Below are positions 11,151-32,000 of a stretch of 32,000 bases of DNA, piece after piece. Under the pieces are notes generated by a model, which worked only from the letters and a program-made list of their open reading frames with translations, was not told where the DNA came from and did not search any database. The stretch's first letter is position 1; every line of letters starts with the position of its first letter. The DNA is from Saccharolobus solfataricus (GTDB lineage Archaea; Thermoproteota; Thermoprotei_A; Sulfolobales; Sulfolobaceae): NCBI RefSeq assembly GCF_900079115.1, contig NZ_LT549890.1, positions 1,080,001-1,112,000 of the forward strand, written 5' to 3'. The translations under genes were made by a program, and so were the position numbers.

Positions 11151-11169
11151 TCTGGAATCATTAATATTT

Positions 11170-13221: not shown

Positions 13222-13305
13222 CTGTAGACCGTAGTCAATGGCTTTCCCCAAATTTTATTCACCATTTAGCAAATCTCTTATTTTGCAGAACTGCTTTCTT
13301 CGTGT

Positions 13306-14397: not shown

Positions 14398-14516
14398 TTT
14401 ACTACTTATTTCGTTACGGATTCATACCAAAAATTAACTTTTACTTAGTTATATATATATTAATATATATTAAAAAATATAGTATTGATTAGCCATATTG
14501 TCTTATCCATTCTGCA

Positions 14517-15235: not shown

Positions 15236-15361
15236 GTCTTCTGTCCCTTACCTCTTAATATAAATTTTTCAATGTAAAATTAACCCTATTAGTTATTAAA
15301 TATAGATCATTTGTTTAAACTCCTCTGTCTTCTAATGAGTATTTAGTCTAATATCAAAAAA

Positions 15362-15371
15362 GCTTTATTTG
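15362..15371 (+). promoter_or_regulatory. TATA box for hypA / Mrp-type hypB
   Basis: GCTTTATTTG is centred about 27 nt upstream of ATG 15393. Confidence 0.4.
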
Positions 15372-15392
15372 TGCAGAAAACAATTTAATACT

Positions 15393-15824: not shown

Positions 15825-16503
15825 GAGTAAGCTAAAAGGTAAGAAAGTTATTACGATAATGAGTAGTAAAGGCGGTGTCGGAAAAAGTGTAGTATCGGCC
15901 TTACTTTCACTTTCCTTAATATCATCTGTTACACTAATAGACATGGATATACATAGCATGGGAATAGCTAAGCTCTTTGGTATTGAGAATAGGAATCTAG
16001 AAGTATCAAAGGAGGGGATTGTACCAATAAAAATAAGAAACGTTAATCTAATCTCGCTTGCAAGTATTGTTAGAGATAGATATGTTATACTACCTGGTAG
16101 AAACCAAAGTAACGTTATGAGGGAATTGATAGCGTATTCGATAATAAATAGTGATTATGTCGTATTTGACTTACCACCAGGGTTGGGGGACGAGGTTCTA
16201 GTGTTGGAAGAGTTAACAGATTTTAAGCCAGTAGTAGTTACAACACCATCAAAGGTCTCAGTAAAGGTAGTTAAGAATTTGATAGAGTACATGAACGAGA
16301 GGGGAAAGAAATCATTGGTTGTAGTTAACATGTCTTACTTTAATTGTCATGGTGAAAGAGTATACCCATTTGGTTATTACGATGGCGAGGTAAACTTACC
16401 AATAGATCCTAACATAGAGGAATATATAGGTAAGATTCATGAATATTATGGAGAGGTGAAAAAGGTAATTGAGAAGGAGCTAATTCCTAAACTCGTTTTT
16501 TAA
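15784..16503 (+). CDS. Mrp/MinD-family P-loop ATPase, probable HypB functional equivalent
   Basis: Deviant Walker A VITIMSSKGGVGKSVVSA, plus DLPPGLGDE (Walker B/switch). The gene immediately follows hypA and overlaps it by 41 nt. Thermococcales use an Mrp/MinD-type ATPase with HypA. An alternative GTG start is at 15799. Confidence 0.7.
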   Translation: MWWRKVDPLRELAKSKLKGKKVITIMSSKGGVGKSVVSALLSLSLISSVTLIDMDIHSMGIAKLFGIENRNLEVSKEGIVPIKIRNVNLISLASIVRDRYVILPGRNQSNVMRELIAYSIINSDYVVFDLPPGLGDEVLVLEELTDFKPVVVTTPSKVSVKVVKNLIEYMNERGKKSLVVVNMSYFNCHGERVYPFGYYDGEVNLPIDPNIEEYIGKIHEYYGEVKKVIEKELIPKLVF

Positions 16504-17109
16504 AAACTCCCTTATTTTCTCATAAGCCTCCACTTCAACGTTTGTAGCGTTTTTGAAAAGGCTTACATAAAAATCAATTGATAGATTTAAATTTAGATGT
16601 TTATTATAGCCTAATTTCTCTGCTTCAGATTTATATAGTACCAATGGAATGGACATATTTCTAAACCTCACTTTAGTATAAACGAAATCTACTATGTGAT
16701 CTGTACCGCATTCTGCTATCAATTTCTTTTGGAATAGTTTAGAGGAAATATCATAGGGATTAATACCTATTACCTTCTCCTCACATAGATTATTAGTAAT
16801 AGTTACGATAAGCTGTTCATTGACTACCTTCTCACTATGTACTATTAAATCCCACTCCTTTAAGGTCTTTATGACATAATAAGGTGCGATCGCAACACTT
16901 GGTTTTACTATTGAAATAATAAGATTACCAAATTTTATTTTACCATTAAATATCTGTGATAAGATTACCTCTGATGGTAAATTCTCGATTAGATATCTTG
17001 CGGTTGGAATACTGCTAATCAAAGATATTAATCTGTCATTTATAACCCAAAAATTGTAGTTCTCGATGACAAGTAAGTTATAGGGAATTTCACCAATGAG
17101 ATTGACCAT
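16480..17109 (-). CDS. hypothetical protein, last gene of the hydrogenase operon
   Basis: 209-aa ORF, 22 nt downstream of the endopeptidase gene on the same strand. No motif recognised. Confidence 0.5.
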   Translation of the reverse strand: MVNLIGEIPYNLLVIENYNFWVINDRLISLISSIPTARYLIENLPSEVILSQIFNGKIKFGNLIISIVKPSVAIAPYYVIKTLKEWDLIVHSEKVVNEQLIVTITNNLCEEKVIGINPYDISSKLFQKKLIAECGTDHIVDFVYTKVRFRNMSIPLVLYKSEAEKLGYNKHLNLNLSIDFYVSLFKNATNVEVEAYEKIREFLKNEFRN

Positions 17110-17131
17110 CTTGTCATCTTCACTGGTTAAG

Positions 17132-17656
17132 TCAATTATTATTCACCACCCCGTAAAGCTTTTTAATTGTATCGTCTACGGTGACTTCGATCCCAAAATT
17201 CTTTTTCAAAAATTCGGTCAATGATAAAACTATTTGATCTAGTTTTCTTCTCAACTCCTCTGATAGTCCTAGCTTTACATCTAAGACATAAGGCTTACAG
17301 CCCACTAAGTATACTTCTGGAGCATAGCCCATGATCTTAAGAGTTGTTAAAATACTTTGTATCCCTACACCATGTGACCCTGAATACTCAAAATCTAATA
17401 CTGTAGAGGTCACCTCATCACTATCTATGTTAATGTCAATTCTACTTATATCGAAATCTTTATCCATCGCTACCGCATCAATTAAAATGATTATATCATA
17501 ATCTTTAAGTACTTCCATAGCTGATGCTCCAGCTGCTCCAAGATCTATAACATCACATCCCTTGACATTTCCGTATAGGGCTTCTGCCATATATGATCCA
17601 AATCCATCATCACCCATTAGCCTATTTCCAACTCCTACTATTGCTATCCTTTTCAT
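17132..17656 (-). CDS. hoxM: [NiFe]-hydrogenase maturation endopeptidase (HoxM/HybD/HyaD family)
   Basis: IAIVGVGNRLMGDDGFG (GxGNxxxxDDGxG), ILIDAV (Asp ligand) and SGSHGVG (His ligand). 174 aa. Confidence 0.85.
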   Translation of the reverse strand: MKRIAIVGVGNRLMGDDGFGSYMAEALYGNVKGCDVIDLGAAGASAMEVLKDYDIIILIDAVAMDKDFDISRIDINIDSDEVTSTVLDFEYSGSHGVGIQSILTTLKIMGYAPEVYLVGCKPYVLDVKLGLSEELRRKLDQIVLSLTEFLKKNFGIEVTVDDTIKKLYGVVNNN

Positions 17657-18424
17657 TTAAAAATCCCTCCAATACTTCTCACCTTCTGGAATAGGCTTCC
17701 AACTGGGCTTCTTTTGGGAATTCATTATCCTTCCGTGAAGTCTTACGAGCCTTGAGATCACTGGCATTAACTCCTCCCTCTCCTTAACTTGGTCTGTAAT
17801 CAATCTACCTACTAAATCCCTCGCCTTCAGCAAGTTGTCTGTAACGTCCTTCCATAATCCCCAGTCAGCTGAAGTGAGTTCTATAATTTTATTCCCCTCA
17901 ATATCGTATTTTAATAATAATGAGATCACATCTGATAAGTGTTTATCTAAAGCGAAATGAATCTGAAGCTTTGATAGTAATAAATCTTCCTCATTTAATG
18001 TAAACTCTGAGTTCCAATTAACTGGGATTACGTGGCTAAATCTCATTTCGTTGAAGTAATAAGCTCTTACCACTTTCTCTTCCTTGAAGAACATACTTAC
18101 AATATTTCCTAGTGTTTTCTCGAGGTGAAAGTATGGAGTGTAATCTAGATTGTACATAACTTGTTTAAACTTTTCCCTATCTTCAGTTCTTACTATGAAA
18201 TTAATGTCTTGAGGACCACTTCTTCTATACAACTTCATTATATCTGACGATAGTTTGTTATCCTTGACCTTATAGTAAACTGCGATGGATCCATAAAGTA
18301 AAGCAACTATCCCTTTCTCTTTACATTTCTCATATATTTTTTCAGCATCACTCAAATAATCATTAAACATCTTATTAACATCAATCTTTCTAAGTTGTGC
18401 ATCAAATGGGGAAATTCCAGACAT
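17657..18424 (-). CDS. hypothetical protein, possible nucleotidyltransferase-fold (NTP_transf_5 / KNTase-like) with helical C-domain
   Basis: 255 aa. LLYGSIAV...YRRSGPQDINFIV resembles the G[GS]...R...D.D.hh motif, but with Asn in place of the second Asp. The C-terminal helical part contains RLVRLH (an Rx4H-like string). The stop abuts the hoxM start. This is a weak by-eye call. Confidence 0.5.
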   Translation of the reverse strand: MSGISPFDAQLRKIDVNKMFNDYLSDAEKIYEKCKEKGIVALLYGSIAVYYKVKDNKLSSDIMKLYRRSGPQDINFIVRTEDREKFKQVMYNLDYTPYFHLEKTLGNIVSMFFKEEKVVRAYYFNEMRFSHVIPVNWNSEFTLNEEDLLLSKLQIHFALDKHLSDVISLLLKYDIEGNKIIELTSADWGLWKDVTDNLLKARDLVGRLITDQVKEREELMPVISRLVRLHGRIMNSQKKPSWKPIPEGEKYWRDF

Positions 18425-18471
18425 TATATTTACATATTATCTTAGTGATATATATTTTTACCTATATTTCT
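18425..18471 (-). promoter_or_regulatory. possible internal promoter within the hydrogenase operon
   Basis: This is the only sizeable spacer inside the 11-gene block (47 nt) and it is very AT-rich. On the minus strand AAAAATATATAT is centred about 29 nt upstream of ATG 18424. Confidence 0.3.
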
Positions 18472-18975
18472 TTATGTTTTTACTTTATCTAATAATTTTT
18501 CTAATTCGTTTAATAAACTTATAATATCAATAAAATTCTGTGATCTCTTTATAATCCTTATATACTTGTCTATTTGGATAGTCGTGAAATTCCTATTCAT
18601 CATTTTAAAATCTGGATCATTTGTAATTACAATTCCACAATTAGTGACACTACCAATTAATGGTAAAACGGAAGGTATCTGAAGTACTTTAGCAATATTA
18701 AAATCTCCCTCAACCTCTATATAAACCTCATAACTCCACACTATTTCATCCAATCTTAAAGAGTATCTAGCTTTAAGAAAATTTAATAGATCATTAACTA
18801 GTTTCTGAGACTCATCTCCAATAAACATGATCTGCTTTACGAAATTGCCACCTCTTTCATCTAATATTAGGTTAATCTTAACACCCCTAAAACTAAACTC
18901 TAAGGAACTTGTGTAAAAAAACGAATTAATAATTTCTCTAGGAATTGGTCTTAAAAAGGAAATTGTATAGACCAT
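18472..18975 (-). CDS. hypothetical protein (167 aa from ATG 18975; 185 aa if 19029 is used)
   Basis: ORF in the operon. ATG 18975 lies 5 nt after the upstream stop, whereas 19029 would overlap the upstream gene by 49 nt. No motif recognised. Confidence 0.5.
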   Translation of the reverse strand: MVYTISFLRPIPREIINSFFYTSSLEFSFRGVKINLILDERGGNFVKQIMFIGDESQKLVNDLLNFLKARYSLRLDEIVWSYEVYIEVEGDFNIAKVLQIPSVLPLIGSVTNCGIVITNDPDFKMMNRNFTTIQIDKYIRIIKRSQNFIDIISLLNELEKLLDKVKT

Positions 18976-18980
18976 TTCCC

Positions 18981-19427
18981 TTATTTTCCTAGCCTTCTTA
19001 ACACTTCCCTTTTCATCATTTCCTTGCATGTTTTACCCCACTTACTAATTTCTCCATCATTGTTCACAACTTCACATTCAATTACTATTAAATCTGGAGG
19101 TAAACTACCCATTACTCTAGCCATTTTAATAAAAGTATCAACATCCATGAAGTAAGCTTTCATTCCGCTATGAATTTCTAAAAAATCTGAAAAGGTGCTA
19201 CCATTAAACTCTGGTCTATATACTCTTAACTCCTCCTTCCCTCTCTTTTCACTTGCTAATAGAATAAGATTATCTAGATTAAGTTGAAATAAAAAAGTAG
19301 ATGCCTTAATTGCACCCAAACTTAAATCAATTACCTCAATACCCTCTAGTCTCATTTCTTCCATAACTAGCAATGGAATTTGATAATCTCCTTTATACCA
19401 ATAACCTATTGCTGCGATTTTTGGCAT
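18981..19427 (-). CDS. degenerate hydrogenase-endopeptidase paralogue (HybD-fold, metal ligands partly replaced)
   Basis: By-eye alignment to the adjacent HoxM. IAAIGYWYKGDYQIP aligns with IAIVGVGNRLMGDDGFG. IEVIDLSLGA aligns with CDVIDLGAAG. NLILLASE aligns with IIILIDAV (Asp to Ala). EIHSG aligns with SGSHG (His kept). PDLIVIECEV aligns with PEVYLVGCKP. Confidence 0.6.
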   Translation of the reverse strand: MPKIAAIGYWYKGDYQIPLLVMEEMRLEGIEVIDLSLGAIKASTFLFQLNLDNLILLASEKRGKEELRVYRPEFNGSTFSDFLEIHSGMKAYFMDVDTFIKMARVMGSLPPDLIVIECEVVNNDGEISKWGKTCKEMMKREVLRRLGK

Positions 19428-19750
19428 TTATTGGCACCTTTAGGTTTTATTGTTTCTGCTAGCTTCCATAATATATTTTCTGGGTTTTCAATATTTAAGG
19501 GAGTCACATTGCACGCTAATGCTGCTAACCTTCTTGATTCGCTTATCCTAATGTTCCTATTCTCTTTTATTTCTAAATTGAGGTTATACTCCCTTAAAAT
19601 CTCCTTTAGAATTGAAATTGAATCTTCTCTTTCCCTAATAACTGGGTAAATGAGTTCCTTAACACTTTGTTTAACATCTTCATCTAAAACTTTGGTTATA
19701 TCACTAATCATCTTGTCGAATCCTAAAATACGAAGTAGAAAACCACTCAT
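19406..19750 (-). CDS. hypothetical small protein (114 aa, helical and charged)
   Basis: The start codon overlaps the isp2 stop (ATGA at 19747-19750), which suggests translational coupling. No motif recognised. Confidence 0.5.
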   Translation of the reverse strand: MSGFLLRILGFDKMISDITKVLDEDVKQSVKELIYPVIREREDSISILKEILREYNLNLEIKENRNIRISESRRLAALACNVTPLNIENPENILWKLAETIKPKGANKCQKSQQ

Positions 19751-21018
19751 ATCTTTATCCCCCTATCCAGTAGCTCAGTAAAGTAGATCACTTTGAAATC
19801 GGCTTGTTTATCCTTTACTGCATTCTCTAGTGACAACATACAGTTAGGATCAAATACTATTACGCTCTTCCCTCCCCATTTGGTTAGCTGAGAAACGACG
19901 TAATTTCTAACTCTCTTCAGAATATCCTTTTTCTCACCTATCAATTCTACATGATGAGTACACGTGTATAATTTATCTGAAGATGGCTTCTCCTTAGGCT
20001 CAATGAATTGCGGAGCTGTTAGCCTTAATATCTCTCTAGGTGGCTCCTCAATACCACCCAGTCTACTGAGGAATTCTGAGTAGTGGACACTAGTAGGCGC
20101 TACTATATCAGCCTTTTCTAACTTTACTTTACCTTGCTTATACATGTCATACACAGTTTTGGTTAAATGTTCAACTTCTATTGGAGGAGTCTCCTTAATG
20201 CTCTTTGGACCTTGCCATCTTAGCCAGAAATACCCCATACCATCTGTGGTGATTATCTTTTTAACATTTAGTTTCATAGCAGTTTCATAAATTCTAACTA
20301 ATATACCTCTGGCAGTCTCAAAGTCACCCATAAGATATGCGTAATATCCTGGATCACTAATTTCAGAGCTTACAGTTACGCTGAGTTTTAGTTTACTTAA
20401 AACGCTTACGGTATTAGCCAAAACGTTAGTGTTTTGAATCTCCAAGGGTGAAGGAACATATAGTATTTCACTGTCCTTTTTATCTATATTAAAGCCTACC
20501 TTACTTGCTACTTCACCCCAATTTTCTATTCCAAATGCGTTTCCTTTTTCTTTAGAATTAATAATTAACTTCTCTGCACTTTCATAATTAAATCCAGAAT
20601 AGTGAAGAATCCTCCTCATTATTATAGCAGTATACCAATTTGGTACCTCCATTGGAGATGTATATGTACACGCTCCACATGCAGTACAATCATATGCAGA
20701 TTCAGTCCAATGTTTAAATTCATTTCCACTTATTCTTCTAAGCCTTAAATATCTAGCAACAATGCCATAACCAGTGTAAAACATTGAATATATTTTATTA
20801 ATTTCATACGTTCTCCAGGCTGGCACATCATAAAATTTCTTAGTTTCCTGCCAAAATGGGCATGAATAACTACAAATCCCACATCTCATACAATTCTCTA
20901 TTCCCATTACATCTGATGGAGTAAACTCATCAAAAGTCTTAGATGCTAATTTTCTATTTATTTCAACCTTTCCCTTACTCAACCTAAATCCCCCACATTT
21001 AAACTCTTCTTTTACCAT
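19747..21018 (-). CDS. isp2: Isp2-like Fe-S subunit (HdrD/DsrK-related) of the hydrogenase membrane module
   Basis: First ferredoxin motif CMRCGICSYSCP (C43, C46, C49, C53). Second motif CTACGACTYTSP (C111, C114, C117, with Ser121 where Cys is expected). The large C-terminal domain has no CC(G) motif. Start set at ATG 21018 (MVKEEF), a 20-nt overlap with isp1. The ORF track start is 21048. Confidence 0.7.
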   Translation of the reverse strand: MVKEEFKCGGFRLSKGKVEINRKLASKTFDEFTPSDVMGIENCMRCGICSYSCPFWQETKKFYDVPAWRTYEINKIYSMFYTGYGIVARYLRLRRISGNEFKHWTESAYDCTACGACTYTSPMEVPNWYTAIIMRRILHYSGFNYESAEKLIINSKEKGNAFGIENWGEVASKVGFNIDKKDSEILYVPSPLEIQNTNVLANTVSVLSKLKLSVTVSSEISDPGYYAYLMGDFETARGILVRIYETAMKLNVKKIITTDGMGYFWLRWQGPKSIKETPPIEVEHLTKTVYDMYKQGKVKLEKADIVAPTSVHYSEFLSRLGGIEEPPREILRLTAPQFIEPKEKPSSDKLYTCTHHVELIGEKKDILKRVRNYVVSQLTKWGGKSVIVFDPNCMLSLENAVKDKQADFKVIYFTELLDRGIKI

Positions 21019-21886
21019 ATACACTACCTGCAAATCCCTTCTGCACATAATACCAGAACATATGGAATGCCTTACTAAATGGCGTATATCCTATGAATAT
21101 TCCAATTAACGCTATGTGTAAACCATACCAGTTGGCTTGATTAGGTATACCTAGATATGGAAATCCCCAATCATATGCTGCCCCTAGACCAGTGATCATT
21201 ATGGCTGCTAATAATATTAAGAAAACGTAATCACCAACACTGCTAATCATTCTATGTCTGGTAGTATCATCAACTATTCTAGTAGCTAAATAACCTACTA
21301 AACCCGCTAATGCTAGCAAGGTCATAAAACTTCCATTAACTATTACTGATAATACACCCCATGGCGAAATTGTATTCGTTGCTACTTGAGCGGAATTCCA
21401 GGCTCCAACTGGATTCATTATTCCTCCTTGAGAATATGAATTTGGACCAAGTATTCCTATCTGATACCCTGAGGTAAATGACTCTGGTACTGATGCAGGC
21501 ATCAACCAACCAAGAATATTCTGAAGTCCGGTAAGTTCGCTATATATGTAGTTCCACGCTATAATGTGAATACCTACAACTATGATTAGACCTAATATGA
21601 AGATGTGGTTAAATATTGTCTCTAAGATCAATAATGGATCATTTTTAGCGGCTCTACCGAATGGTCTAGGAATCGCACTAACCGCTTCCTTAAATTCAGT
21701 AGCAAATCCAGCTTGTCCCTTTGTCGCGGCTCTTGAAAATAAAAATTCCCTAGCTATCCTATAAATAGCACCGAAAACAAAAAATATAATACCTATAGGG
21801 AAAATGACATCTAAGCCCCACCAATACAGACTTAATGGAGTCGCTGGACCACCATTTGCTCCTATTGCAGCATGGACTACTATCAA
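20999..21886 (-). CDS. isp1: Isp1-like integral-membrane di-haem b-type cytochrome (NarI/HdrE/DsrM family)
   Basis: Five or more TM helices. His pairs are H94/H107 in one helix (NHIFILGLIIVVGIH) and H257/H275, 18 residues apart, in the last helix. The last helix also carries the PFSKAFH motif typical of NarI-like proteins. The gene directly abuts the hynL stop. Confidence 0.7.
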   Translation of the reverse strand: MIVVHAAIGANGGPATPLSLYWWGLDVIFPIGIIFFVFGAIYRIAREFLFSRAATKGQAGFATEFKEAVSAIPRPFGRAAKNDPLLILETIFNHIFILGLIIVVGIHIIAWNYIYSELTGLQNILGWLMPASVPESFTSGYQIGILGPNSYSQGGIMNPVGAWNSAQVATNTISPWGVLSVIVNGSFMTLLALAGLVGYLATRIVDDTTRHRMISSVGDYVFLILLAAIMITGLGAAYDWGFPYLGIPNQANWYGLHIALIGIFIGYTPFSKAFHMFWYYVQKGFAGSVYGKRRV

Positions 21887-24145
21887 TTACTTCACCCTCA
21901 TTGCAAACTTATAGAATGCCTTTATGGATTCACTTAAATCTATAGGAGCTCCTAAGGTGATATATCTAACTTTACCGTTTGGCAAAACTACGTGAACCCC
22001 ACAAACGAAGCATGGGTCGAATGATCTTAGTGTTGCTGCAAATTCAAACCCATCCCATTGCTCTAATGGTGTTACTGTTAATTTTGGTATACCATTAATG
22101 TTATACCCTTGATTTCCTTGGATAACTTCCTCAAAAGTTCCAGCACCTCCATTTTTAGCCAATAATGAAAATGGTTGTATTTCCCCTATAACATCTTGAT
22201 AAGAGTTAACAACCCTAGGACCAGCATTTACTGTTGTTGGTTGTTGCTGCTGCGGGTTTATTGTAGGAACTGTGGGACCACTGCCTAAGGCTATAACTTC
22301 TGAGTGCCACTGTGCTCCTCTAGGTGCCTCTTTAAGGCCAACTCCTAGTGCAACATCCGTATTAGTATTCTTCTTATAGGTCCAATCATACTGGTTACCT
22401 CTACTAACTGCAGTTTGTCCTTGAGTCAGATACTTTACTGCAGCAAACCAAGCTATCCATCCACCAGCACCTTCTAAAGCCACAGCGTGAGCTCTAGCTC
22501 TCATTCTTTCCACAGCATTGGTAGTCACATTTATAGTACCGTTAGATAGCTTAGATGATAAGGCCCATGGTGAAACATACTTTATGTCTATCTCACCTTG
22601 TAGTTCTGGCGGTAATATTATCCTAGAAGAAACGGTTTGCGGTAAGTTCCATATTACTGATTGCTCATTACTATTATAATTGATTTCTATACCCGCAACT
22701 GAATATGTTGAAGTGTAAATTGGATCCGGACCTTGTGGCTGCAATACTTGAACCCACATAACAGCTTGCGGATCTGCCTCAACATTGAAGAAGGAGTTCA
22801 TAGTAGGTTTATGCCCAGAATATGGTACTATTCTCGGCGATACTGCCCAGCTATACTTATTCTGTGAATTTCCGCTTCCAAATGGATAGCCCCTAGCTAA
22901 TGGCATTGGTATTGTCCATTTCTTCCATGGATGATAATTACTTACTGGATTTCCTATTGGATCTTGCGAGATTCCAGAAACCTCTGACGGAACTTGAGGG
23001 TTGTTTACCCAATCCTCATAAAACGAAGACTCGATAAATTGTCTCATTCCTAGATTTATATCAATTAGACTATTAGTTACCAGTTGTGGGGGTGAATTTG
23101 GGCTTGTTTGTATTACCAGTCCAGGTTTAACTACTCTAGCCCTTCCCCATGCTCCCATGTTTTCATATGTAGCGTCATATTCCATAACTGAAGTTGATGA
23201 GGGGGTCACTGAGGGAGGTTCAGCTACATCACTTTGGCCATAGCATAAATAATTTCCTGGCCTATTACCCATTTCAGCAAAGCCTAAATTATTATATTTG
23301 TCGTAATACGCTTGTACACCGAAAGCGTTACCATAATCGGTTAAGAATAGATTTAACACTTCCCAATACGCTACTTGCTTCTTTAAGTATGCTGTTCCAT
23401 CTACTAATCTTTGTAAGTACTGTTGTAGGTTTTCTACAGTAGCAGGGACTCCTATCCCACCTGGAACCATGGTTATAGGATGCGGGACTCTTAAATAGTA
23501 TAATAGCTCAGCTTCATGAAATATTCTCCACACATATGCACCTTCCAACCATATCGCACCGATGATTGGAACTAGACCATCCATTATATCAGCCACTGTT
23601 CTCATGGTTACTCCGCTAAACTTTAGCTCGCTAGGAGCTCCATTTGGAAATGCTTCAGAATACTCTAAAACCTTGCTTATTGGTGTTTGTTGTGCTAATT
23701 GGTAAATTTCTGGTGGATAATAGCCTGCAATCTTAAAGAATAGTGAACTCCAATCTGGTCCACCTAAAGCTGTTAAATGTGCAGTGTGATCATACATCAT
23801 TGCAGCATCATTAGCTAACATGATAGTCTCTAGTCCTAACGGTGGTGGAGCATAACCGCCCATTGCCATTTCTTGCGCTATTCTCTCTATGAACTGATGA
23901 TGTTCTCCACATATTCCACACTCTCTGGATGATAACATTATGACATCTGGTGCTGGTTTATTCCTCATGAAGATCTCGAATCCTCTAAACATTCCTGCTC
24001 CAGCATATGCTTCTACAGCCCTGACTTGATTTTGACCTTCTATATTTACGCTTACTTGAATCCCTAACTCTGGCTTTATTCTAACTATGGGCTCTATTAC
24101 AACTGGCTTTGTCCAATCATATTTAAATAGGTATGAAGAGGCCAT
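21887..24145 (-). CDS. hynL: [NiFe]-hydrogenase large subunit (membrane-bound uptake type), unusually long at 752 aa
   Basis: N-terminal Ni-Fe ligand motif SRECGICGEHH (C76, C79). Also EAPRGAQWH. C-terminal motif DPCFVCGVH (C712, C715, H718) is followed by a 34-aa extension that would be removed by the endopeptidase. Confidence 0.9.
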   Translation of the reverse strand: MASSYLFKYDWTKPVVIEPIVRIKPELGIQVSVNIEGQNQVRAVEAYAGAGMFRGFEIFMRNKPAPDVIMLSSRECGICGEHHQFIERIAQEMAMGGYAPPPLGLETIMLANDAAMMYDHTAHLTALGGPDWSSLFFKIAGYYPPEIYQLAQQTPISKVLEYSEAFPNGAPSELKFSGVTMRTVADIMDGLVPIIGAIWLEGAYVWRIFHEAELLYYLRVPHPITMVPGGIGVPATVENLQQYLQRLVDGTAYLKKQVAYWEVLNLFLTDYGNAFGVQAYYDKYNNLGFAEMGNRPGNYLCYGQSDVAEPPSVTPSSTSVMEYDATYENMGAWGRARVVKPGLVIQTSPNSPPQLVTNSLIDINLGMRQFIESSFYEDWVNNPQVPSEVSGISQDPIGNPVSNYHPWKKWTIPMPLARGYPFGSGNSQNKYSWAVSPRIVPYSGHKPTMNSFFNVEADPQAVMWVQVLQPQGPDPIYTSTYSVAGIEINYNSNEQSVIWNLPQTVSSRIILPPELQGEIDIKYVSPWALSSKLSNGTINVTTNAVERMRARAHAVALEGAGGWIAWFAAVKYLTQGQTAVSRGNQYDWTYKKNTNTDVALGVGLKEAPRGAQWHSEVIALGSGPTVPTINPQQQQPTTVNAGPRVVNSYQDVIGEIQPFSLLAKNGGAGTFEEVIQGNQGYNINGIPKLTVTPLEQWDGFEFAATLRSFDPCFVCGVHVVLPNGKVRYITLGAPIDLSESIKAFYKFAMRVK

Positions 24146-24146
24146 T

Positions 24147-25496
24147 TTAACTCACCTCCTTAGCTTTTGGAATTATGGGTTTACCTCTTCTCCTAGATAA
24201 ATAATAAGAACCTACACCCACCACTATTCCGGCACCTACAGCTGCAGCTAGTAATGTTGTTGAAGGTAGAGTTGGTGCATTTGGTGGTGCATAGAATGGT
24301 TCATATAAATCTGGAAACCCTGGGGCAGTACAAGCGATACATACTCCACCTCTAGTGCATCCTCCTACACCACCGACCCAACCTAAAAGTGGGGCGGGAC
24401 TATTAGCTTCAGTACCCTTACATCCTAGGCTATAAGTACATTGAGGGTCTCCGAAATTCTTAGCAAATATGCCTTGTGCGAAGAATCCAGCTCTTGGACA
24501 ATTCTGATGGGTTTCATTTCCGTAAAAGTATTTTGGTCTATTGAAAACATCTAGAGATTCTGACGGTGCGGGACCTAATCCTCTGGCATATAGTACTCCA
24601 GCTACTAATGTTCTCATAATCCAATCCCCGGCAGGTGGATCAGCTGCGATTGCAACAATTGGTTGTTTTAACGTACTTAACCAATGATAACTTGGTCCGG
24701 GATATGCCGTATTATATGGCGAATTGGTAACAGCATATATATCTTCATCAATTACTTGCTCTCCTCTGAAGTAACCTAAACCTTTCTGATATACTTCATG
24801 TATATATGCAGGGAAACCTAAAATTCCCCTATAGGGATCATCTAGCATTCCCATAGTATATGTGGGACTTCTCTGTCCTAATCCATTTGTAGTGGAAGGT
24901 ATTCCCCCATATGTTGCACAAGCACCGGTAGCATAAACTAGAGCTGCTCTCTTCATTAGATTAAATACGAACTCGTCACATAATAGTACATGACCGCTAG
25001 GTGTTCTGCCGGCAGAACACCAGAAGGAGTCCTTGGGTTTTTGATAATATAGTCCAAATTCATCAAACATCGTACCCTCAACAACTAATACATAGGGGTC
25101 GAAAACCCCAGCTAATGCAGCCTCCATAGTAGGATAGGCCATATCATCTTGTGGCATAAGTATTGGGTGATAAACTAGATTTACGTTCCCTAGATTTGCT
25201 ATTGACGGAGCTCTTAATGTTATTGGTTGTAGATTTATTGTTACTTGCGTTATCACATCTTCTACAGCAGGGTTCATTGCATCTATAAACGCTATTGTGT
25301 TTCCTCCACACCATCCGTTCCCTGTCCATATCACGTTTATTGGATCTGCTAAAGAATCGCTAGCCATATTAAATAGATCTTTCCAAGTTAATCCCTTCTC
25401 CATCATCCAAGCTGTTAATCCTGTAATACCCGCTAGTTTCATGAAATCTCGTCTGCTTATTCCCACCTTTATTTGTCTAGGTTTAGGATCTTTCAC
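24147..25496 (-). CDS. hynS: [NiFe]-hydrogenase small subunit with Tat signal and C-terminal membrane anchor
   Basis: GTG start at 25496. Twin-arginine motif SRRDFMKLAG. Small-subunit motifs GACATYGG, HQNCPR, CTYSLGCKG and CIAC. C-terminal TM segment TLLAAAVGAGIVVGVGSYYL followed by RRRGK. Several canonical Cys positions are substituted (see findings). Confidence 0.9.
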   Translation of the reverse strand: MKDPKPRQIKVGISRRDFMKLAGITGLTAWMMEKGLTWKDLFNMASDSLADPINVIWTGNGWCGGNTIAFIDAMNPAVEDVITQVTINLQPITLRAPSIANLGNVNLVYHPILMPQDDMAYPTMEAALAGVFDPYVLVVEGTMFDEFGLYYQKPKDSFWCSAGRTPSGHVLLCDEFVFNLMKRAALVYATGACATYGGIPSTTNGLGQRSPTYTMGMLDDPYRGILGFPAYIHEVYQKGLGYFRGEQVIDEDIYAVTNSPYNTAYPGPSYHWLSTLKQPIVAIAADPPAGDWIMRTLVAGVLYARGLGPAPSESLDVFNRPKYFYGNETHQNCPRAGFFAQGIFAKNFGDPQCTYSLGCKGTEANSPAPLLGWVGGVGGCTRGGVCIACTAPGFPDLYEPFYAPPNAPTLPSTTLLAAAVGAGIVVGVGSYYLSRRRGKPIIPKAKEVS

Positions 25497-25499
25497 TCT

Positions 25500-25545
25500 A
25501 CTCCCCTTTATTAGGTATATTAAAGTATACCATGTTTATAAATTT
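25500..25545 (-). promoter_or_regulatory. hynS promoter region: TATA-like boxes plus SD-like AGGGGAG
   Basis: On the minus strand TTTATAAAC (25534-25542) and TTTAATATA (25516-25524) precede AGGGGAG (25500-25506) and GTG 25496. Confidence 0.35.
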
Positions 25546-25585
25546 TTCTTATAAACTTGCTACATCATATTGTTTTATTTTTTAT

Positions 25586-26584
25586 TCACGATCTATGAGA
25601 ATAATAATAGAAGATCGGAAACAACGAAACGAAAAAGGGTGTAAGTGATAGTACCATAACTGCTGAGATTACATTGTAAAAATAAGCTACTGATGCTCCG
25701 AAGAGTAACTCTGAAACGGCTGGGAGTAAGGACAAGTAGGGAACTATTCTTACATTCACTTCTTTCCTACTCATATCTACATAATAAAACATCATTGATG
25801 TCATTAAAAGTGTTGCAATTGCGTATGGAATTTGATTGATTGTTAGGGAATAATAAAATTCTGTTGAAGAAAGGGAAAGACTGGATATGGCGAATAGTAG
25901 ATAATAGAACGTATTAATCCTTCCGCTAATATATTTATAAGAAAAATAAATTGTGAAGATTACTGAGAGAAGTAGTTCAAGTATGGAAGACTCTTTAATG
26001 GGATCGTACGGTAATGGAAGTATTGAATGCGTCATCTCCGAGGCTATGTTTGGTCCTGCAAATATTAGGGAAGAAAGAAGAAGCGAATAAATGTTTCTAT
26101 ATTTAAAACTTAAGTAAGCTATTTCTGGAAACACCATGAGGAAGAACATGAACGAGTTAACAACTTCTAGAATTGCTGGAATTATAATTTGGGATATCGA
26201 TAACGAGAAGCTTGGAATATCCGTTGCATAAAAGTATAGGCTATATAGAGATTTTGTTAAATTACCCCTTAGTATTACGTAATATAGTAAGCTCATTAGA
26301 ATCTCTTGTATAACTAAGGAGGACACTATGGCAAATTTGTATTTTCCGAGATTATAACTTATCTGCATTATTAGCCAGAAATAAACAACAATTATTAATG
26401 ACAACATAAAGTCCGATAGGGAGAATAGTACGAAATATACCGCAGTTGATATATAACTTATGAGAAGAAAAAGGTATCCTAGTTTGTTCTTTAACGCGAA
26501 TTTATATGACATAGTGACTAATATGGTCATCGCGGATATGTAAAATATATAGAATAGTACTAACAAGTGGGTTTCACTGTTCAT
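25586..26584 (-). CDS. polytopic membrane protein of unknown function (about 332 aa, about 10 TM)
   Basis: Extremely hydrophobic and rich in Y/F/S/L/I. Start moved to ATG 26584 (MNSETH) because a TTTATAA box is centred 27 nt upstream, and the track's ATG 26623 lies upstream of that TATA box, outside the predicted transcript. Same strand as hynS and 89 nt upstream of it. Confidence 0.6.
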   Translation of the reverse strand: MNSETHLLVLFYIFYISAMTILVTMSYKFALKNKLGYLFLLISYISTAVYFVLFSLSDFMLSLIIVVYFWLIMQISYNLGKYKFAIVSSLVIQEILMSLLYYVILRGNLTKSLYSLYFYATDIPSFSLSISQIIIPAILEVVNSFMFFLMVFPEIAYLSFKYRNIYSLLLSSLIFAGPNIASEMTHSILPLPYDPIKESSILELLLSVIFTIYFSYKYISGRINTFYYLLFAISSLSLSSTEFYYSLTINQIPYAIATLLMTSMMFYYVDMSRKEVNVRIVPYLSLLPAVSELLFGASVAYFYNVISAVMVLSLTPFFVSLFPIFYYYSHRS

Positions 26585-26670
26585 ATGTTTACTCTTCTCA
26601 AAAATAATTATAAAGTTTACCATAATATACCTAGTATAGCTTATTAACTACTAAAGTAATTAGAATTTAT
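26585..26670. promoter_or_regulatory. divergent promoter region
   Basis: 86-bp AT-rich spacer between divergent genes. TTTATAA (reverse complement of 26608-26614) serves the minus gene. CTTATTAA (about 26639-26646) lies about 27 nt before ATG 26671. Confidence 0.35.
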
Positions 26671-27927
26671 ATGAAATTTCTATCATGGAGGGAAGCAGTT
26701 AATGAAAATAAGAAGCTGATAGTGTTATTTATGACTACTAGTTGGTGCGAAAGTTGTGAAGAGCAAGAAAAGGAATTACTTGAAATCGAGGATGAAAGAG
26801 TTTCCCTAGTTAAGGAAGATGCTGATGAAAGGTTGGATTTAGCTGTAAGATATACACCCCAAATTTACCCAACAATTAGTCTAATATCTAAAAATTCTGT
26901 CATTGGGGGAACTTACGGCTTAGTAAAAAGGGGCAAATTGATAGAAATGATAAGTGAGGCCTTAAAGCTAATAGAGGGAAAGGGTAAGTTTATAGTTCCC
27001 CCTAAACTGTCTTCCCAAAAAATTGATAAATTCCCACCAGATTACGCATTTAACCATATCTTAAGGGTTTGTGAGGGATATTTTGATTGGAAAGAGGGAG
27101 GATTTGAGAGGGAACCAAAGCATGTTTCTCCAGAAGTATTACAGCTATTCTTGCATTTTAATGATTATTATCATAAGATAATGGTGGAAGTAACGTTAGA
27201 TAACGCTATAGAATATTTATGGGAAAATGGATTTTGTATGTTTTCCAAGTCAGGAGATTGGAAGGAACCCTATAAGGCTAAATTATTAGACTATAATGCT
27301 GAAATGGTTAAGACGCTTGTTAAGGCGTACCAAGTTTTGAAAAAGGAGATCTACCTAGATTACGCAATTGCTACTACTGACTGGTTATTGAGTAAGAGGG
27401 ACAATAGGGGTTACTTCATCAATGGTGAATTTCTTGGAGTAGAGGATAAGAGACCATTTCTCAACGTTAATGCTAATGTTGGAGACGCCTTCATGGAAGT
27501 TTATAGGATTACCAATGACAAGAAATATCTGGAGATTGCAAAAGACTTAGAACAGAGATTAGTATTAGCACATAGAATGGATGTACTTTCTCCTCCATAC
27601 TTGATAGATTTAGCCTCATACTTAAATTTCCTCTCTAAACTTAATCCAGATAAAGCTAGAAATTTATTGCATATACTTGACGATTATAAAGGAAGTGAGG
27701 CTTATTACGACACGACATTAGGGTTTGCTACGGAGAACAAGATAGGTAGGTTTTACTTCCTTTACGATAATGTTTTGCTAGCAAACGCATTGATTAACCT
27801 TAATATTTTTGAAGAAGCCAAAAGAATTGTAGATATGTTTCTCTCCTCATATAGCATTTACGTATATTTTAACCAAGCTAAGTATGCTCTAGTTTTGGGT
27901 GAAATTTATGGTCTCTTTACTCACTAA
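26671..27927 (+). CDS. thioredoxin-fold + alpha/alpha-toroid protein (short YyaL/DUF255-like)
   Basis: N-terminal thioredoxin-like segment KKLIVLFMTTSWCESCEEQEKEL (CxxC). A central GGFEREPKHVSPEVLQLFLHF resembles the GGFG.APKFP...L.FLL motif of YyaL-type proteins. The C-terminus is repeat-helical. Confidence 0.55.
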   Translation: MKFLSWREAVNENKKLIVLFMTTSWCESCEEQEKELLEIEDERVSLVKEDADERLDLAVRYTPQIYPTISLISKNSVIGGTYGLVKRGKLIEMISEALKLIEGKGKFIVPPKLSSQKIDKFPPDYAFNHILRVCEGYFDWKEGGFEREPKHVSPEVLQLFLHFNDYYHKIMVEVTLDNAIEYLWENGFCMFSKSGDWKEPYKAKLLDYNAEMVKTLVKAYQVLKKEIYLDYAIATTDWLLSKRDNRGYFINGEFLGVEDKRPFLNVNANVGDAFMEVYRITNDKKYLEIAKDLEQRLVLAHRMDVLSPPYLIDLASYLNFLSKLNPDKARNLLHILDDYKGSEAYYDTTLGFATENKIGRFYFLYDNVLLANALINLNIFEEAKRIVDMFLSSYSIYVYFNQAKYALVLGEIYGLFTH

Positions 27928-28384
27928 ACTATATTTTCTTCTGATAGGTTTAAGCCAATTACCATTTTTATATGAAATTACAGTTCTGCTTCATTCTACG
28001 ACATCTTTTCCACTTATATACATAAATTATAGCCTAGGGATAATAATTATAGTTACCCTCATTTGTAACCTATTCATGTTATTAGATGGTTATACTAAAT
28101 ACGCTTCTGTCCTCCTTCTTGTTCCAGTTATAAATGTATTTATTATACCTTTTATCTCGTATAAGTTAACATCATCTAAACTATTAACCGGAATTACCTT
28201 TTCCCTATGGTTTTCTAACTTAGTCTTCACATTAATCTCCAATGTACCTACAACAATCTATTATGGAAGTGGTAAGTATTTTCTAGATAAATTTATGGTC
28301 TTAGATTTTCTCTCAGTTGCGTCTCTTATAATTATTGGATATTGTGTTATTTATAAGGAAAAGAAGATTTCCAAAAATAGGTAA
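27899..28384 (+). CDS. small membrane protein (161 aa, about 5 TM)
   Basis: Hydrophobic ORF overlapping the upstream gene by 29 nt, which suggests co-transcription. Confidence 0.5.
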   Translation: MKFMVSLLTKLYFLLIGLSQLPFLYEITVLLHSTTSFPLIYINYSLGIIIIVTLICNLFMLLDGYTKYASVLLLVPVINVFIIPFISYKLTSSKLLTGITFSLWFSNLVFTLISNVPTTIYYGSGKYFLDKFMVLDFLSVASLIIIGYCVIYKEKKISKNR

Positions 28385-28422
28385 CATTATTAACAAAAAG
28401 TTTTTATAAAGAAGAGAGAAGA

Positions 28423-29382
28423 GTGCATGTGAAACTAAAAATAGTGTGTTCGATGTATATGTTTTTATTAGCGCTAATCCCTTCTACAGCTTTCTCCTTT
28501 GTAAATCAAGTAGGAGATTCTATTTTAATTGTAAATGAGCACAACTTAACAATATCTGGGCTCAACATATTTGAAGGAAATATAACAATTGTCAACTCAA
28601 GTAACATTGTCATAGAAAACAATAATATCTTAAATAGTTTTTATTTTGGTATTTTCGTATATAACTCTATAAATGTCACAATCTCAAATAATATAATTAA
28701 AAATTCCTATTATGACGGAATTTCCATAAGGAACTCCAAATACGTGGAGATTAAATATAATATTATTACAAATAATACCAATGGGAATGGGATTTCAGTT
28801 TGGGATGATAGCAAGTATATAAACATAAACAACAATAAATTATTGTATAACCTATACGGAATTTTTGTACTATCCAGCTCAAATGTTAGTATCTTCAATA
28901 ACAGTTTATCTAACATATACCATTATGGAGTATATCTCTATAACTCTAGTTTAACTAAAGTTCCTAATAATTCGATACGTAACTCCGATGTGGGGATAGA
29001 AATTATCATGGGAAATCTCATATCGATACAATCTAACGCTATACTAAATAATCTTGTTGGCATTTACATAGGAGAAAATATAGGAAACCTTACTATAATA
29101 GGTAATTTAATCCAAAACTCCAAGTATTTTGGGGTATTAATTTATAATTATCCTACCACTTTCATCTTCAAAACAAATGCCTTTATGAACAACGTCTTGA
29201 ACGTCTTTTATGCGTATAATTCAACAATTCCTAAGATAAGTGTTTCGAATTCAACTATATTAACAACGATAAAACAAAGCGATAGCCATCTCGTGAAACT
29301 TTCTCCCATTATACCATTGTTACTATTGATAATGATAGTATTCCTTGTCTACTTATTTCTATTTAGAAAAGGCAGAAGATAA
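28423..29382 (+). CDS. secreted/anchored right-handed parallel beta-helix repeat protein (NosD/CASH-like)
   Basis: Signal-like N-terminus (KLKIVCSMYMFLLALIPSTAFS). About 10 tandem repeats of roughly 22 aa of the form N-I-x-I-x-N-N-x-I (for example NVTISNNIIKNSYYDGISIRNS and KYVEIKYNIITNNTNGNGISVWDD). At least ten N-x-S/T sequons. C-terminal TM anchor followed by RKGRR. The true start may be GTG 28429 or ATG 28453. Confidence 0.7.
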   Translation: MHVKLKIVCSMYMFLLALIPSTAFSFVNQVGDSILIVNEHNLTISGLNIFEGNITIVNSSNIVIENNNILNSFYFGIFVYNSINVTISNNIIKNSYYDGISIRNSKYVEIKYNIITNNTNGNGISVWDDSKYININNNKLLYNLYGIFVLSSSNVSIFNNSLSNIYHYGVYLYNSSLTKVPNNSIRNSDVGIEIIMGNLISIQSNAILNNLVGIYIGENIGNLTIIGNLIQNSKYFGVLIYNYPTTFIFKTNAFMNNVLNVFYAYNSTIPKISVSNSTILTTIKQSDSHLVKLSPIIPLLLLIMIVFLVYLFLFRKGRR

Positions 29383-29607
29383 TGAATTTTCAAGTAAACT
29401 TCTCATTTCCTTTTCGTAATTTAACATTTCGATGTATTCTTCATTAGAAATCTTACTCACTATCATACCGTAACTCACAACAACGTAGTCCCCTTCTTTG
29501 ACATCATCAACATTATTTATAACAGGTTCGACCAATCCATTACCGTAATCTACGAAGGCTACTATTCCATTAATTTGAACAACTTTTGCAGGTAAACTTA
29601 TACACAT
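29359..29607 (-). CDS. hypC: hydrogenase assembly chaperone HypC/HupF family
   Basis: Essential N-terminal MCISLPAKVV (MC[LI][GAS][LIV]P) motif. 82 aa in an OB-fold-like pattern with GDYVVVSYGMIVSKI. Confidence 0.85.
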   Translation of the reverse strand: MCISLPAKVVQINGIVAFVDYGNGLVEPVINNVDDVKEGDYVVVSYGMIVSKISNEEYIEMLNYEKEMRSLLENSLSSAFSK

Positions 29608-29954
29608 AAGATAACAATGTTTTTAATACTTTTAAATCTTTATAACTCTTATGAGCTTATATGATTTAGAAATAATCGACCTAGACGTCAATATAAGGGA
29701 TGGGAAAGTAGTTAGTGCTAAGTGCTCTGGAAACAAGGTAAGAGGATTTGAAAAAGCATTTACGGGGAAAGATGCTAAAACGTTATATGAAGTTTTACCT
29801 AGAGTCTTAGCTACATGCAGCCAATCTCACCTTTACGTATATGTTAAACCTCATATCCAAACTTCAATAACTGAACTACTTATGTTTCTAGAAATCATTG
29901 ACAGTCATATGAAACACCCTTATGCTTACTGGTTTCCACATATAATTAAAGACG

Positions 29955-31395
29955 ACAGTGGTGTTTCACCAAATTATTTCATTTGAAAGATATAATATTA
30001 GCACTTTCAAAAAGAGATTGATATAGAGAAAAACAATAAAATTATTATGAAACATAACATGTTAAAATAATTTGCAAAAAATATAGCGTACAATTCTAAT
30101 AATAAGAGGAGAATTCTGAATTTTTCTCACGTGGTGAAAACGACGTGCATAGTCTCCTCTGAACACCGAGAAAGTTAGAGAAGCTTGACGAATGAATCGA
30201 AGGACAAAACCTTCTTACACGTGGACTTGAAGTTAAAGAGAAGATGATTCACTAGATTCCACGCAGAATCCAGAACCGTATAATAGAGGAACAAGAAGAT
30301 CTTATTACTCAACTTCCTAACATACCTTATCCTTGCCTTCCTAACCTTAAAACCCTCCTCAACCTGCCACCTCAACCTATAGAGTTCAGCCAGTTCATAG
30401 GGATCTCCCTCGAAGTTCGTTACGAACATGAAGTGCCTCGGCTTTCCCTTAACGTAAACCACATCGTAATAATAAAGCCCTTCAAATTCCAAGACCCTAT
30501 ACGCAACGTAAACCTTGTCCTTAACCTCGTATCTCTTCTCAACTAATGGAACGTTAGATAGTTCCTTGAATCCCTTCAAGTTCGACTTTCCTCTCACAAT
30601 GGTCTTCACGGGCATTTCCTTGATGACCCCTAGGTTCAAGAATCCGGCGTCAGCTACAACGTAATCTATTTCCATGTATTGGCTTACTTCCCTCACGCTC
30701 CTGAGTAGGAACTGTGATGGACTGTCGCTTCTCAAATCTGCTACCTCCACTAGGAGGGGTAACCTTAAGGGATATACGAGGTCCAAGGATCTCATCTTTA
30801 CTCCTTTTCTCTTCCAGTTGTAGAGTAGAAAGCCCTCTGCTTTTTCTTGTTCCTTTTCTCCCACGGTTAATCCGGTCTCATCTACAGCGACTACGTTGAT
30901 CTCTCCCTTTACTTCTCTGTAGATTGGGTAGAACTTGAAGGTTCTCTGACCTTTACTAATTACTTTCTCGCCTCGTCTTACTACCTTCAAGTAGTATTTT
31001 CCTCTGTTTCCGGTTAGCAAGGATGGTGCTGCTTTCACTATTTCCGGGTCTAGATCTTGAGAGATAACGTTAATATTGTTTGTTGCTAAAGTTATAGCGA
31101 GGGACTTCAGCTCCGTTTTGGATACTTGTATGGTTTGCATAACGGAGTTATGGAGTCCCTCGCTTTAACCTTTTCTTGTTCATCTCGTCCTTCCACCTAC
31201 TTTCCTCTATTGATAATACTAGACAAATGGTATTACTCTTTATATATAAACTCGTTTTCTGTTAGTTTCTTCAACAAATATGAAAATTTTTTGCTTCTTG
31301 TGTTGAAATAAGCCGATTTTTCTAACTCCGCTCTGATATTTTTCTCTTCCATAGAAATTGTATCATTTTGAGTAAAATTGGTGAAACACCACTGT
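29955..31395 (-). mobile_element. Insertion sequence, 1441 bp (ISC1439-like by size), DDE type
   Basis: Perfect 18-bp terminal inverted repeats: acagtggtgtttcaccaa at 29955-29972 and its reverse complement at 31378-31395. Perfect 7-bp target-site duplication AAAGACG (29948-29954 and 31396-31402). Confidence 0.9.
30175..31140 (-). CDS. DDE transposase (IS4-superfamily-like)
   Basis: 321-aa ORF inside the IS. Contains YVVADAGF (DDE Asp) and LYRLRWQVEEGFKVRK (the Y..RW.vE..Fk..K C-terminal signature). Confidence 0.8.
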   Translation of the reverse strand: MQTIQVSKTELKSLAITLATNNINVISQDLDPEIVKAAPSLLTGNRGKYYLKVVRRGEKVISKGQRTFKFYPIYREVKGEINVVAVDETGLTVGEKEQEKAEGFLLYNWKRKGVKMRSLDLVYPLRLPLLVEVADLRSDSPSQFLLRSVREVSQYMEIDYVVADAGFLNLGVIKEMPVKTIVRGKSNLKGFKELSNVPLVEKRYEVKDKVYVAYRVLEFEGLYYYDVVYVKGKPRHFMFVTNFEGDPYELAELYRLRWQVEEGFKVRKARIRYVRKLSNKIFLFLYYTVLDSAWNLVNHLLFNFKSTCKKVLSFDSFVKLL

Positions 31396-32000
31396 AAAGA
31401 CGAGAAGTACTCTTTCCCCTCAGGAGAAAAATTTAGAAAAGTGAGTTTAGTATCTAGAAAAATAAAAGAGATTATGGAGAAAATTGGAGGAAAGTGGCCT
31501 CATGTGGATTATTTAAAAGGTGAGAAAATTGTGAAAATTACAAAAGGAGAACTAAGAGATATAACAAGTTTTATGGAAAGTGAGTTACTTGGAATGTCAA
31601 TAGAGGACTTTCTTAACGTAAAAAGGTTGGAGGAATTATCTGGTGATCTAAAACTAATGGTGGAGAAAAGTATTGATTCGTTGAACTGGAATTTCGGGTT
31701 AAGGAATTATCTAGTAGTTGGATTTCCTTTTAAAAATACTGAATTTGATTGCAATTACATTAAGGATGAGGGACTAGAGGTAAGTTATAAGGGTAAAAAG
31801 GTTGAAGTTGGACCATTGGCTCAAGCTTTAACTTTTGATAAATTAGTCAAAAGCTATTTTAATAAATATGGTCCTTCACCACTACTTAGGGAAATATCTA
31901 GGATTAAAGTTGCTGTGAAACTAATAAGCGAGATTAACGATTTAGATATAAGTAGTGAAAGATTTTCGATTTCAGATGGCAATTACGTTTCTTTTGCCGA

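Follow-up and report, generated by a model that had tools for sequence, protein, structure and literature searches.

The 32,000-nucleotide stretch of Saccharolobus solfataricus DNA analyzed here (the window; NZ_LT549890.1, positions 1,080,001 to 1,112,000; guanine-cytosine content of 36.8%) holds a complete SUL2/Hsu2-type [NiFe] hydrogenase cluster and, at its far end, a gene for a HupK-like paralogue of hydrogenase large subunits that is interrupted by an insertion sequence (IS). The gene starts with an ATG at 29651 on the plus strand, 43 bp from a divergent hypC, and the AT-rich intergenic region between the two (29608..29650) may act as their promoter region. Both the open reading frame (ORF) and a HypC domain (PF01455) were found where the initial annotation had placed them, and the translated sequence contains the N-terminal motif that it had reported, preceded by P50 (P50-R-V-L53-A-T-C56-S-Q-S-H60), with the codon for C56 at 29816-29818. 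The 5′ part of the gene (29651..29955, plus strand) comprises codons 1-101 plus 2 nt and is 100% identical to the intact gene in four other contigs (L019, L028, L029, and L030). The interrupted frame enters the IS after codon 101 and stops ten codons on, resulting in a 111-aa ORF. The 3′ continuation (31404..32000, plus strand) begins, in frame, with the final base of codon 102 and extends as far as codon 300, where the window end cuts the gene. As predicted from the letters alone, excision of the IS together with one flanking repeat restores the reading frame (...HIIKD101-E102-KYSF...), which stays open over 300 codons to the window end without any other lesion. The reconstruction matches the intact 388-aa protein of sibling contig L019 at 300 of 300 residues, and by comparison with L019 the stop codon of the gene is expected to end at ~32265. 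The C-terminal motif of the window gene lies beyond 32000 and was thus read from L019, a 100%-identical sibling. The allele carried by the window strain is predicted to be null, with a truncated product of 111 aa.

The interrupting element (29956..31394, minus strand) is 1439 bp long, with 17-bp terminal inverted repeats at 29956-29972 and 31378-31394, and is flanked by two copies of a 9-bp target-site duplication, TAAAGACGA (29947..29955 and 31395..31403), which is found in single copy at the empty site of L019, L028-L030, and L002. In S. shibatae (L001), the empty site reads TAAAGATGA in place of TAAAGACGA. A 321-aa transposase ORF (30175..31140, minus strand) encodes a DDE domain (PF01609, E=6.2e-19), and NCBIfam returned only sub-threshold IS4/ISH3/IS1634 matches for this protein. 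The initial annotation had described an IS of 1441 bp with 18-bp inverted repeats and a 7-bp duplication, AAAGACG. The letters are indeed as described (29955-31395, with AAAGACG at 29948-54 and 31396-402), since a T and an A happen to adjoin the duplication in the target, but the other copies of the element establish 1439, 17, and 9 bp as the true parse; the reconstructed reading frame is identical either way. Ten other copies, found via the identical transposase, are 98.8-100% identical to the window copy, and nine other loci share the exact 1439-bp core (CAGTGG...CCACTG). All visible duplications measure 9 bp, as in the window (L010, cattaacaa; L013, aagaaaata; L016, aattccccc). A copy in S. 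solfataricus POZ149 (L014) aligns with the window IS at 100% identity (1440 bases), that of S. solfataricus P2 (AE006641.1, L011) is 99.65% identical to it, and further near-identical copies occur in other Saccharolobus genomes. The exact transposase protein is listed in 33 blocks of the sequence collection, and the 23 contigs examined include S. solfataricus genomes; the plasmid and phage collections contained no match to the IS. Since this is a multicopy element with a DDE transposase, and since the pre-insertion sequence is present in sibling assemblies, it is not a chance repeat. In size, host, and activity it fits ISC1439 of S. solfataricus, which we take it to be, the name being assigned from size and host and not by ISfinder comparison. 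The event itself is ordinary, routine biology for S. solfataricus, in which ISC1439 is cited as a mobile and mutagenic IS (PMC2797409, PMC7820114).

The initial annotation had also held the insertion to be recent and had suggested looking for the uninterrupted allele in relatives. This allele was found in sibling assemblies, in S. shibatae, and in a metagenome relative. Sibling alleles were located using the window hypC product as a probe, and the 388-aa gene was intact in every contig read that carries the identical hypC (23/23, in three context classes), instead of the IS being fixed with added mutations in the relatives. One representative per context class was retrieved (n=3), each showing an empty site and flanks 100% identical to the window. 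On the Logan contig L019 (SRR10574308), TAAAGACGA occurs once, the site is empty, and the 388-aa ORF is intact; the contig matches the window at 100.000% identity in both the 14,830 bp upstream of the IS and the 606 bp beyond it. More distant intact alleles, also with a single-copy target, encode 388-aa proteins that are 99% (S. shibatae CP077713.1, L001) and 92% (metagenome contig L002) identical to the reconstruction, and the cluster DNA around these two genes is only ~93-94% identical to the window. Because the flanks show zero substitutions relative to empty-site siblings (0 mismatches in up to 14.8 kb), the insertion is very recent, and it is private to the window genome among the public data reached. 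The 111-aa truncated ORF is on record in no other assembly, which is uninformative given that short-read contigs break at IS copies.

Searches with the reconstructed protein returned 24 clusters at 90% identity, all of 379-393 aa, and every family member with a named source belongs to the Sulfolobales (Saccharolobus, Sulfurisphaera, Sulfolobus, Acidianus, and Metallosphaera). The next matches, catalytic large subunits, are separated by a large score gap from this family, which is reduced to one representative plus fragments among the 1.84 billion representatives of a library clustered at 50% identity. Intact ORFs of constant length, 44-99% identical to the reconstruction, are present in Saccharolobus, Sulfurisphaera, Acidianus, and Metallosphaera. 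A profile scan of genome contigs with the family alignment recovered five loci and missed both S. shibatae and the window's own genome. Homology of the reconstructed ORF to hydrogenase large subunits, on which the initial annotation depended, was borne out by several approaches. The NCBIfam NiFe(Se) large-subunit model matched residues 11-61 of the 300-aa reconstruction (E=6e-10, 38.5 bits versus a cut-off of 600); Pfam gave no hit at E<=0.01 for the same 300 residues, and PF00374 is listed in precomputed Pfam results for most full-length homologues. Searched against the PDB, the family profile matched the Huc large subunit (E=1.4e-24). The AlphaFold2 model, obtained with high confidence (predicted local distance difference test [pLDDT] of 92.6; predicted template-modelling score [pTM] of 0.92), also found its best structural match in Huc (7utd_A, TMq 0.74), with further [NiFe] and [NiFeSe] large subunits next in rank.

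The family alignment has a mean column identity of 62% and 77 invariant columns. Three cysteines are invariant: C56 (PRVLATCSQSH), C365 (SSLD[TS]CF, within the C-terminal motif SSLD[TS]C365F[VI][TS]), and C388, the last residue of the protein; the ESIRGSLIH and QPT motifs are invariant as well. L53 stands in place of the first cysteine of the canonical N-terminal motif (RxCGxCxxxH), and T368 in place of the second cysteine of the C-terminal one (DPCxxCxxH). The terminal C388 closes a KR[IV]GG[FL]C tail (KRIGGFC), ~23 residues past the degenerate DPC motif (L019 3329-3352; alignment A1 columns 401-407), and is predicted to sit on a beta-hairpin, at a lower pLDDT (~80). In addition, ~90-100 residues in the middle of the protein are missing compared with group-2 enzymes. 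Two of the four Ni-Fe cysteines are lost, and the gene is best read as encoding a non-catalytic [NiFe] large-subunit paralogue of 388 aa when intact, from a family restricted to the Sulfolobales.

The genomic context of this family is well conserved. In eight loci from five genera, the gene is divergent from a short hypC, to which it is adjacent in seven (L001, L002, L004, L005, L006, L008, and L019) and from which it lies 3.3 kb away in the eighth (L007). A SUL2 and/or a group-2e-like hydrogenase flanks the gene in these eight loci, and a second HypC is encoded between hypD and hypE in three of them (L001, L004, and L008). Its immediate neighbors are hypC and, at the opposite end, hypF or hoxM, with no small-subunit gene adjacent. 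Given that the downstream gene is convergent (hypF in L019), no polar effect of the insertion is expected. One of these loci (L005, JAVYPJ010000005.1) comes from a metagenome-assembled genome labelled Candidatus Aenigmatarchaeota, in which the hypC/HupK-like pair and the 2e-like genes are 55-73% identical to the references; in all probability, this contig is of Sulfolobales origin and was mis-binned.

In the window, the dedicated HypC paralogue (29359..29607, minus strand; 82 aa, MCISLP...; PF01455 E=1.5e-14) is preceded by the membrane-bound SUL2/Hsu2-type [NiFe] hydrogenase operon (19747..25496, minus strand), which is the probable client of the HupK-like protein. It encodes, in this order, the small subunit with a twin-arginine translocation (Tat) signal (24147-25496), the 752-aa large subunit (21887-24145), isp1 (20999-21886), and isp2 (19747-21048), all on the minus strand. 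This small-large-isp1-isp2 order defines SUL2, the dominant aerobic hydrogenase in Acidianus brierleyi, and Metallosphaera sedula has only SUL2 and 2e (PMC11018855). Since the family is found in Metallosphaera, SUL2 and 2e are the likely clients. Accessory genes in the window are nicO (13306-14367), hypA (15369-15824), a ParA/Mrp-type HypB-like ATPase (15784-16503), and a HycI-type protease (17132-17656).

Two further groups of conserved genes surround the SUL2 operon. Between it and hypC (25586-29382), four genes encode a 345-aa protein without a Pfam hit, a 418-aa protein with thioredoxin and GH127-like domains, a 161-aa protein without any family hit that may be membrane-bound, judging by its hydrophobic sequence, and a NosD-like beta-helix protein of 319 aa. 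The whole set is also present in Sulfolobaceae RB850M, and the 345-aa gene is also found in Acidianus and Metallosphaera loci; they may be SUL2-specific maturation or export factors. In S. shibatae (L001 8244-9732), a single 350-aa ORF, with no separate gene call of 158-161 aa, stands at the place of the two genes (161-aa and NosD-like) of the window and L002; a frameshift or another choice of start site may explain this difference in gene calls. Between isp2 and the HycI-type protease (17657-19750), four consecutive small minus-strand ORFs (255, 185, 148, and 114 aa) gave no Pfam hit and are all conserved in L019 and L020.

Comparison with other S. solfataricus sequences revealed that the insertion in the HupK-like gene is not the only rearrangement around this cluster. 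Window positions 1-6505 and 7734-13759 are 100% and 99.98% identical, respectively, to S. solfataricus CP050869.1, which is strain POZ149 (PMC7347861). The 1228-bp segment in between (6506-7733), absent from POZ149, contains a 319-aa transposase-like ORF (6679-7638, weak DUF772 match) and is evidently another strain-specific IS insertion. A transposase ORF at 5126-6256 (DUF4322 and DDE_Tnp_1) is common to the window and POZ149. In POZ149, nicO is truncated at the equivalent of window position ~13759 by two IS1-family elements, beyond which unrelated genes follow (L027 12137-14641), and none of the contigs longer than 1 Mb contains the exact 752-aa SUL2 large subunit; in this strain, the hydrogenase cluster appears to have been lost or rearranged. 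Two window segments flanking nicO (12970-13153 and 14516-15097) are 82-92% identical to the POZ149 IS1-family elements and may be IS fragments or repeats resembling miniature inverted-repeat transposable elements. The short-read contigs L019 and L020 both end near 15014-15126, which fits the presence of a repeat at this place. Window positions 15014-25800 are matched at 100% identity by contig L020, which occurs in at least 20 sequencing samples and ends in 27 nt of an ISC1439 terminus (L020 1-27). Its junction (window 25792-25800) falls inside the 345-aa ORF (25586-26623, minus strand), just upstream of the small-subunit gene, at a site that is empty in the window and in L019, indicating that the L020 strains carry a different ISC1439 insertion. 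The hydrogenase cluster has been repeatedly hit or lost in the S. solfataricus lineage, which suggests that these strains can do without the hydrogenase system under the conditions used to keep them. In the window strain, either there is a defect in the maturation of the aerobic hydrogenases or the growth conditions do not require the system, and the IS hits and losses in its siblings favor the latter.

The initial annotation had regarded the retention of only one of the two N-terminal cysteines as the hallmark of HupK/HoxV proteins. This holds true: using HoxV of C. necator pHG1 as the reference (motifs PRLFALCGEAH and YDPCVPYTV), we found C52 and C366 (HoxV numbering) to be 100% conserved among 116 HoxV/HupK proteins, in which the other two canonical positions, including the first N-terminal one, are not cysteines. 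The bacterial C-terminal motif reads DPC366[VI]x[YF]. Profile alignments of the Sulfolobales family were collinear and full-length with HoxV alone (hhalign, E=2.9e-5), and collinear over 346 columns with a broader HupK-type profile (probability 99.9%, E=3e-32). Judged by these profiles, the homology of the family with HupK/HoxV is not in doubt.

HoxV carries Fe(CN)2CO without nickel and works with HypC-type chaperones (PMC12134894). By analogy with HoxV, we infer a scaffold role for the family, and we consider it probable that the HupK-like protein acts as a HupK/HoxV-type scaffold whose gene was recently knocked out by ISC1439 in the window strain. In the proposed mechanism, the adjacent dedicated HypC would relay the Fe(CN)2CO unit from HypC/HypD to the HupK-like protein, which would hold it on C56 and C365 as a nickel-free intermediate scaffold, with C388 possibly serving as a third, mobile thiolate. 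Under oxic conditions, the scaffold would shield the Fe(CN)2CO unit from O2 before handing it to the apo-large subunit of the neighboring aerobic hydrogenases (SUL2 and/or group-2e-like). In the window strain, a copy of the active element ISC1439 transposed into codon 102, creating the 9-bp duplication and the null allele. In catalytic subunits, the invariant Arg of the RGxLxH motif and the PT motif contact the cyanide ligands, and their conservation in the family fits cofactor binding.

A different reading of the same protein is that of a degenerate large-subunit pseudo-enzyme with a non-scaffold role, either as a placeholder or chaperone for the small subunit or the Isp partners before the mature large subunit is available, or as a regulatory or sensor-derived module of group-2 origin. 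The family is indeed nearest to group-2-type catalytic subunits, with Huc (2a) as its best PDB match and with family hidden Markov model (HMM) scores of 120 bits for the Sulfolobales 2e-like 503-aa subunit and 91 bits for HoxC (2b), and it has kept more large-subunit surface motifs than HupK. However, no small-subunit gene adjoins it and its invariant partner is hypC; moreover, the cysteines retained are the same two as in HoxV/HupK and, together with the invariant RG..H and PT motifs, they point to binding of the Fe moiety and not to simple protein mimicry. We thus regard a non-scaffold role as rather unlikely.

Several observations nevertheless weigh against a HupK/HoxV-type scaffold. When the representative library was searched with the family, HupK-type proteins (xC/Cx pattern, 360-404 aa) scored 70-86 bits and catalytic subunits up to 155 bits, and the Sulfolobales-family HMM gave 120-157 bits for catalytic subunits and at most 35 bits for betaproteobacterial HoxV-type proteins. 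The hhalign scores follow the same trend (459 for family-catalytic, 391 for HupK-catalytic, and 234 for family-HupK). The family also retains RGFE and GGKWPH motifs that are absent from HupK/HoxV, the boundaries of the internal deletions differ, and its invariant C-terminal cysteine has no HupK/HoxV counterpart. The resemblance to HupK/HoxV may therefore be convergent and the function may differ. Finally, given the IS hits and losses in siblings, selection on the gene may have been relaxed even before the insertion. In line with these points, the HupK/HoxV-like label of the initial annotation survives as a resemblance and a probable analogy, based on the cysteine pattern at both motifs, but not as membership, since the family scores higher against catalytic subunits. 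The family is best read as a functional and structural analogue of HupK/HoxV and not as a demonstrated member, with a group-2-like large subunit as its probable, independent ancestor. A bolder proposal, which we put forward as possible and only tentatively, is that the Sulfolobales independently evolved a HupK/HoxV-type scaffold from such a subunit, using the same two cysteines and adding a third one on the C-terminal tail (KRIGGFC) as a possible swinging thiolate that would accept or pass on Fe(CN)2CO. This tail recalls the C-terminal cysteine arm of HypE.

True orthology with proteobacterial HupK/HoxV, in which the two-cysteine scaffold arose once (with vertical or lateral descent) and the bacterial branch evolved faster, would account for the identical cysteine retention, the similar length (383 versus 388 aa), and the full-length collinear profile alignment (E=3e-32). 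In a neighbor-joining tree, no catalytic clade separates the family from HupK/HoxV, but the split of the two from catalytic subunits received a bootstrap support of only 30%, even though long-branch attraction would favor such a grouping. For either family, scores against catalytic subunits exceed those against the other family, and the deletion boundaries and retained motifs differ. Moreover, the family reads QPTTFIASP and is devoid of the HupK/HoxV signature APTEWNFHP. Orthology is on these grounds improbable, and an analogous scaffold, probably of independent derivation, remains our preferred interpretation.

Two further explanations were rejected. A functionless, decaying relic, for which the IS hit would be irrelevant, could be invoked from the other IS hits in the same cluster, or its loss, in sibling S. 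solfataricus strains, but is very improbable in view of the intact ORFs of constant length over several genera at 44-99% identity, the 77 invariant columns, the conserved C-terminal KR[IV]GG[FL]C, the confidently predicted fold, and the maintained hypC synteny. An assembly artefact or an old, fixed insertion found no support and is hardly credible: although the 111-aa ORF is in no other assembly that could confirm the junction independently, a perfect 9-bp duplication typical of this IS, which repeat misassembly does not create, flanks intact ends, and the lack of any mismatch between these flanks and those of empty-site siblings rules out that the insertion is old.

According to a 2025 review, ancillary proteins of the HoxV/HupK type are known from Pseudomonadota, and their precise role is described there as unresolved (PMC12134894). 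The literature searched for HupK/HoxV together with Sulfolobales or Metallosphaera yielded no paper linking them, and no description of the family as an archaeal counterpart of HupK/HoxV was found there; the IS event, for its part, is not new. The hydrogenase census of the Sulfolobales was filtered on both CxxC motifs (PMC11018855), and the family would be excluded from it because it keeps only one cysteine per motif. If the proposed function is true, the idea of an O2-protective scaffold extends to archaea, probably by convergence, and, if its origin is independent, [NiFe] maturation acquired this step on at least two occasions. The window strain and its essentially isogenic empty-site siblings represent a natural knockout/wild-type pair with which the requirement for the protein could be tested without genetic engineering.

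Among known systems, the window element agrees with ISC1439 in its length (1439 bp), ends, 9-bp duplications, and 321-aa DDE transposase; it shows no structural difference, and only its insertion site is new. The protein family has the fold of catalytic group-2 large subunits (Huc 2a 7utd, Sulfolobales 2e-like, and HoxC 2b), which are its best sequence matches, and keeps their N-terminal beta-hairpin, GGxWPH, EVGPLA, and RGxLxH. In contrast to these enzymes, it has L53 and T368 in place of two metal-binding cysteines, lacks the proximal His after the C-terminal motif, bears the ~90-100-residue deletion in its middle, and is encoded without an adjoining small-subunit gene. The bacterial triad of HupF, HypC, and HupK, present only in Proteobacteria making hydrogenase in air (PMC3534401), is paralleled by the Sulfolobales pair plus a second HypC (three loci).

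HoxV of Cupriavidus necator H16 and HupK of Rhizobium leguminosarum are Fe(CN)2CO scaffolds for O2-tolerant membrane-bound [NiFe] hydrogenase. The Sulfolobales family, known from sequence and predicted fold, differs from them in that it is archaeal, found only in Sulfolobales, and nearer to catalytic group-2-like subunits, and its gene is divergently paired with hypC, whereas the bacterial gene lies between hupF and hypC. Both nonetheless belong to the same size class (383 and 388 aa), have lost the same cysteines (the first N-terminal and the second C-terminal) while keeping the same two invariant, and have the (E)xxRGxLxH and PT motifs in common. Both genes also belong to hydrogenase/hyp clusters that include an additional HypC paralogue, and their hosts make hydrogenase in air.

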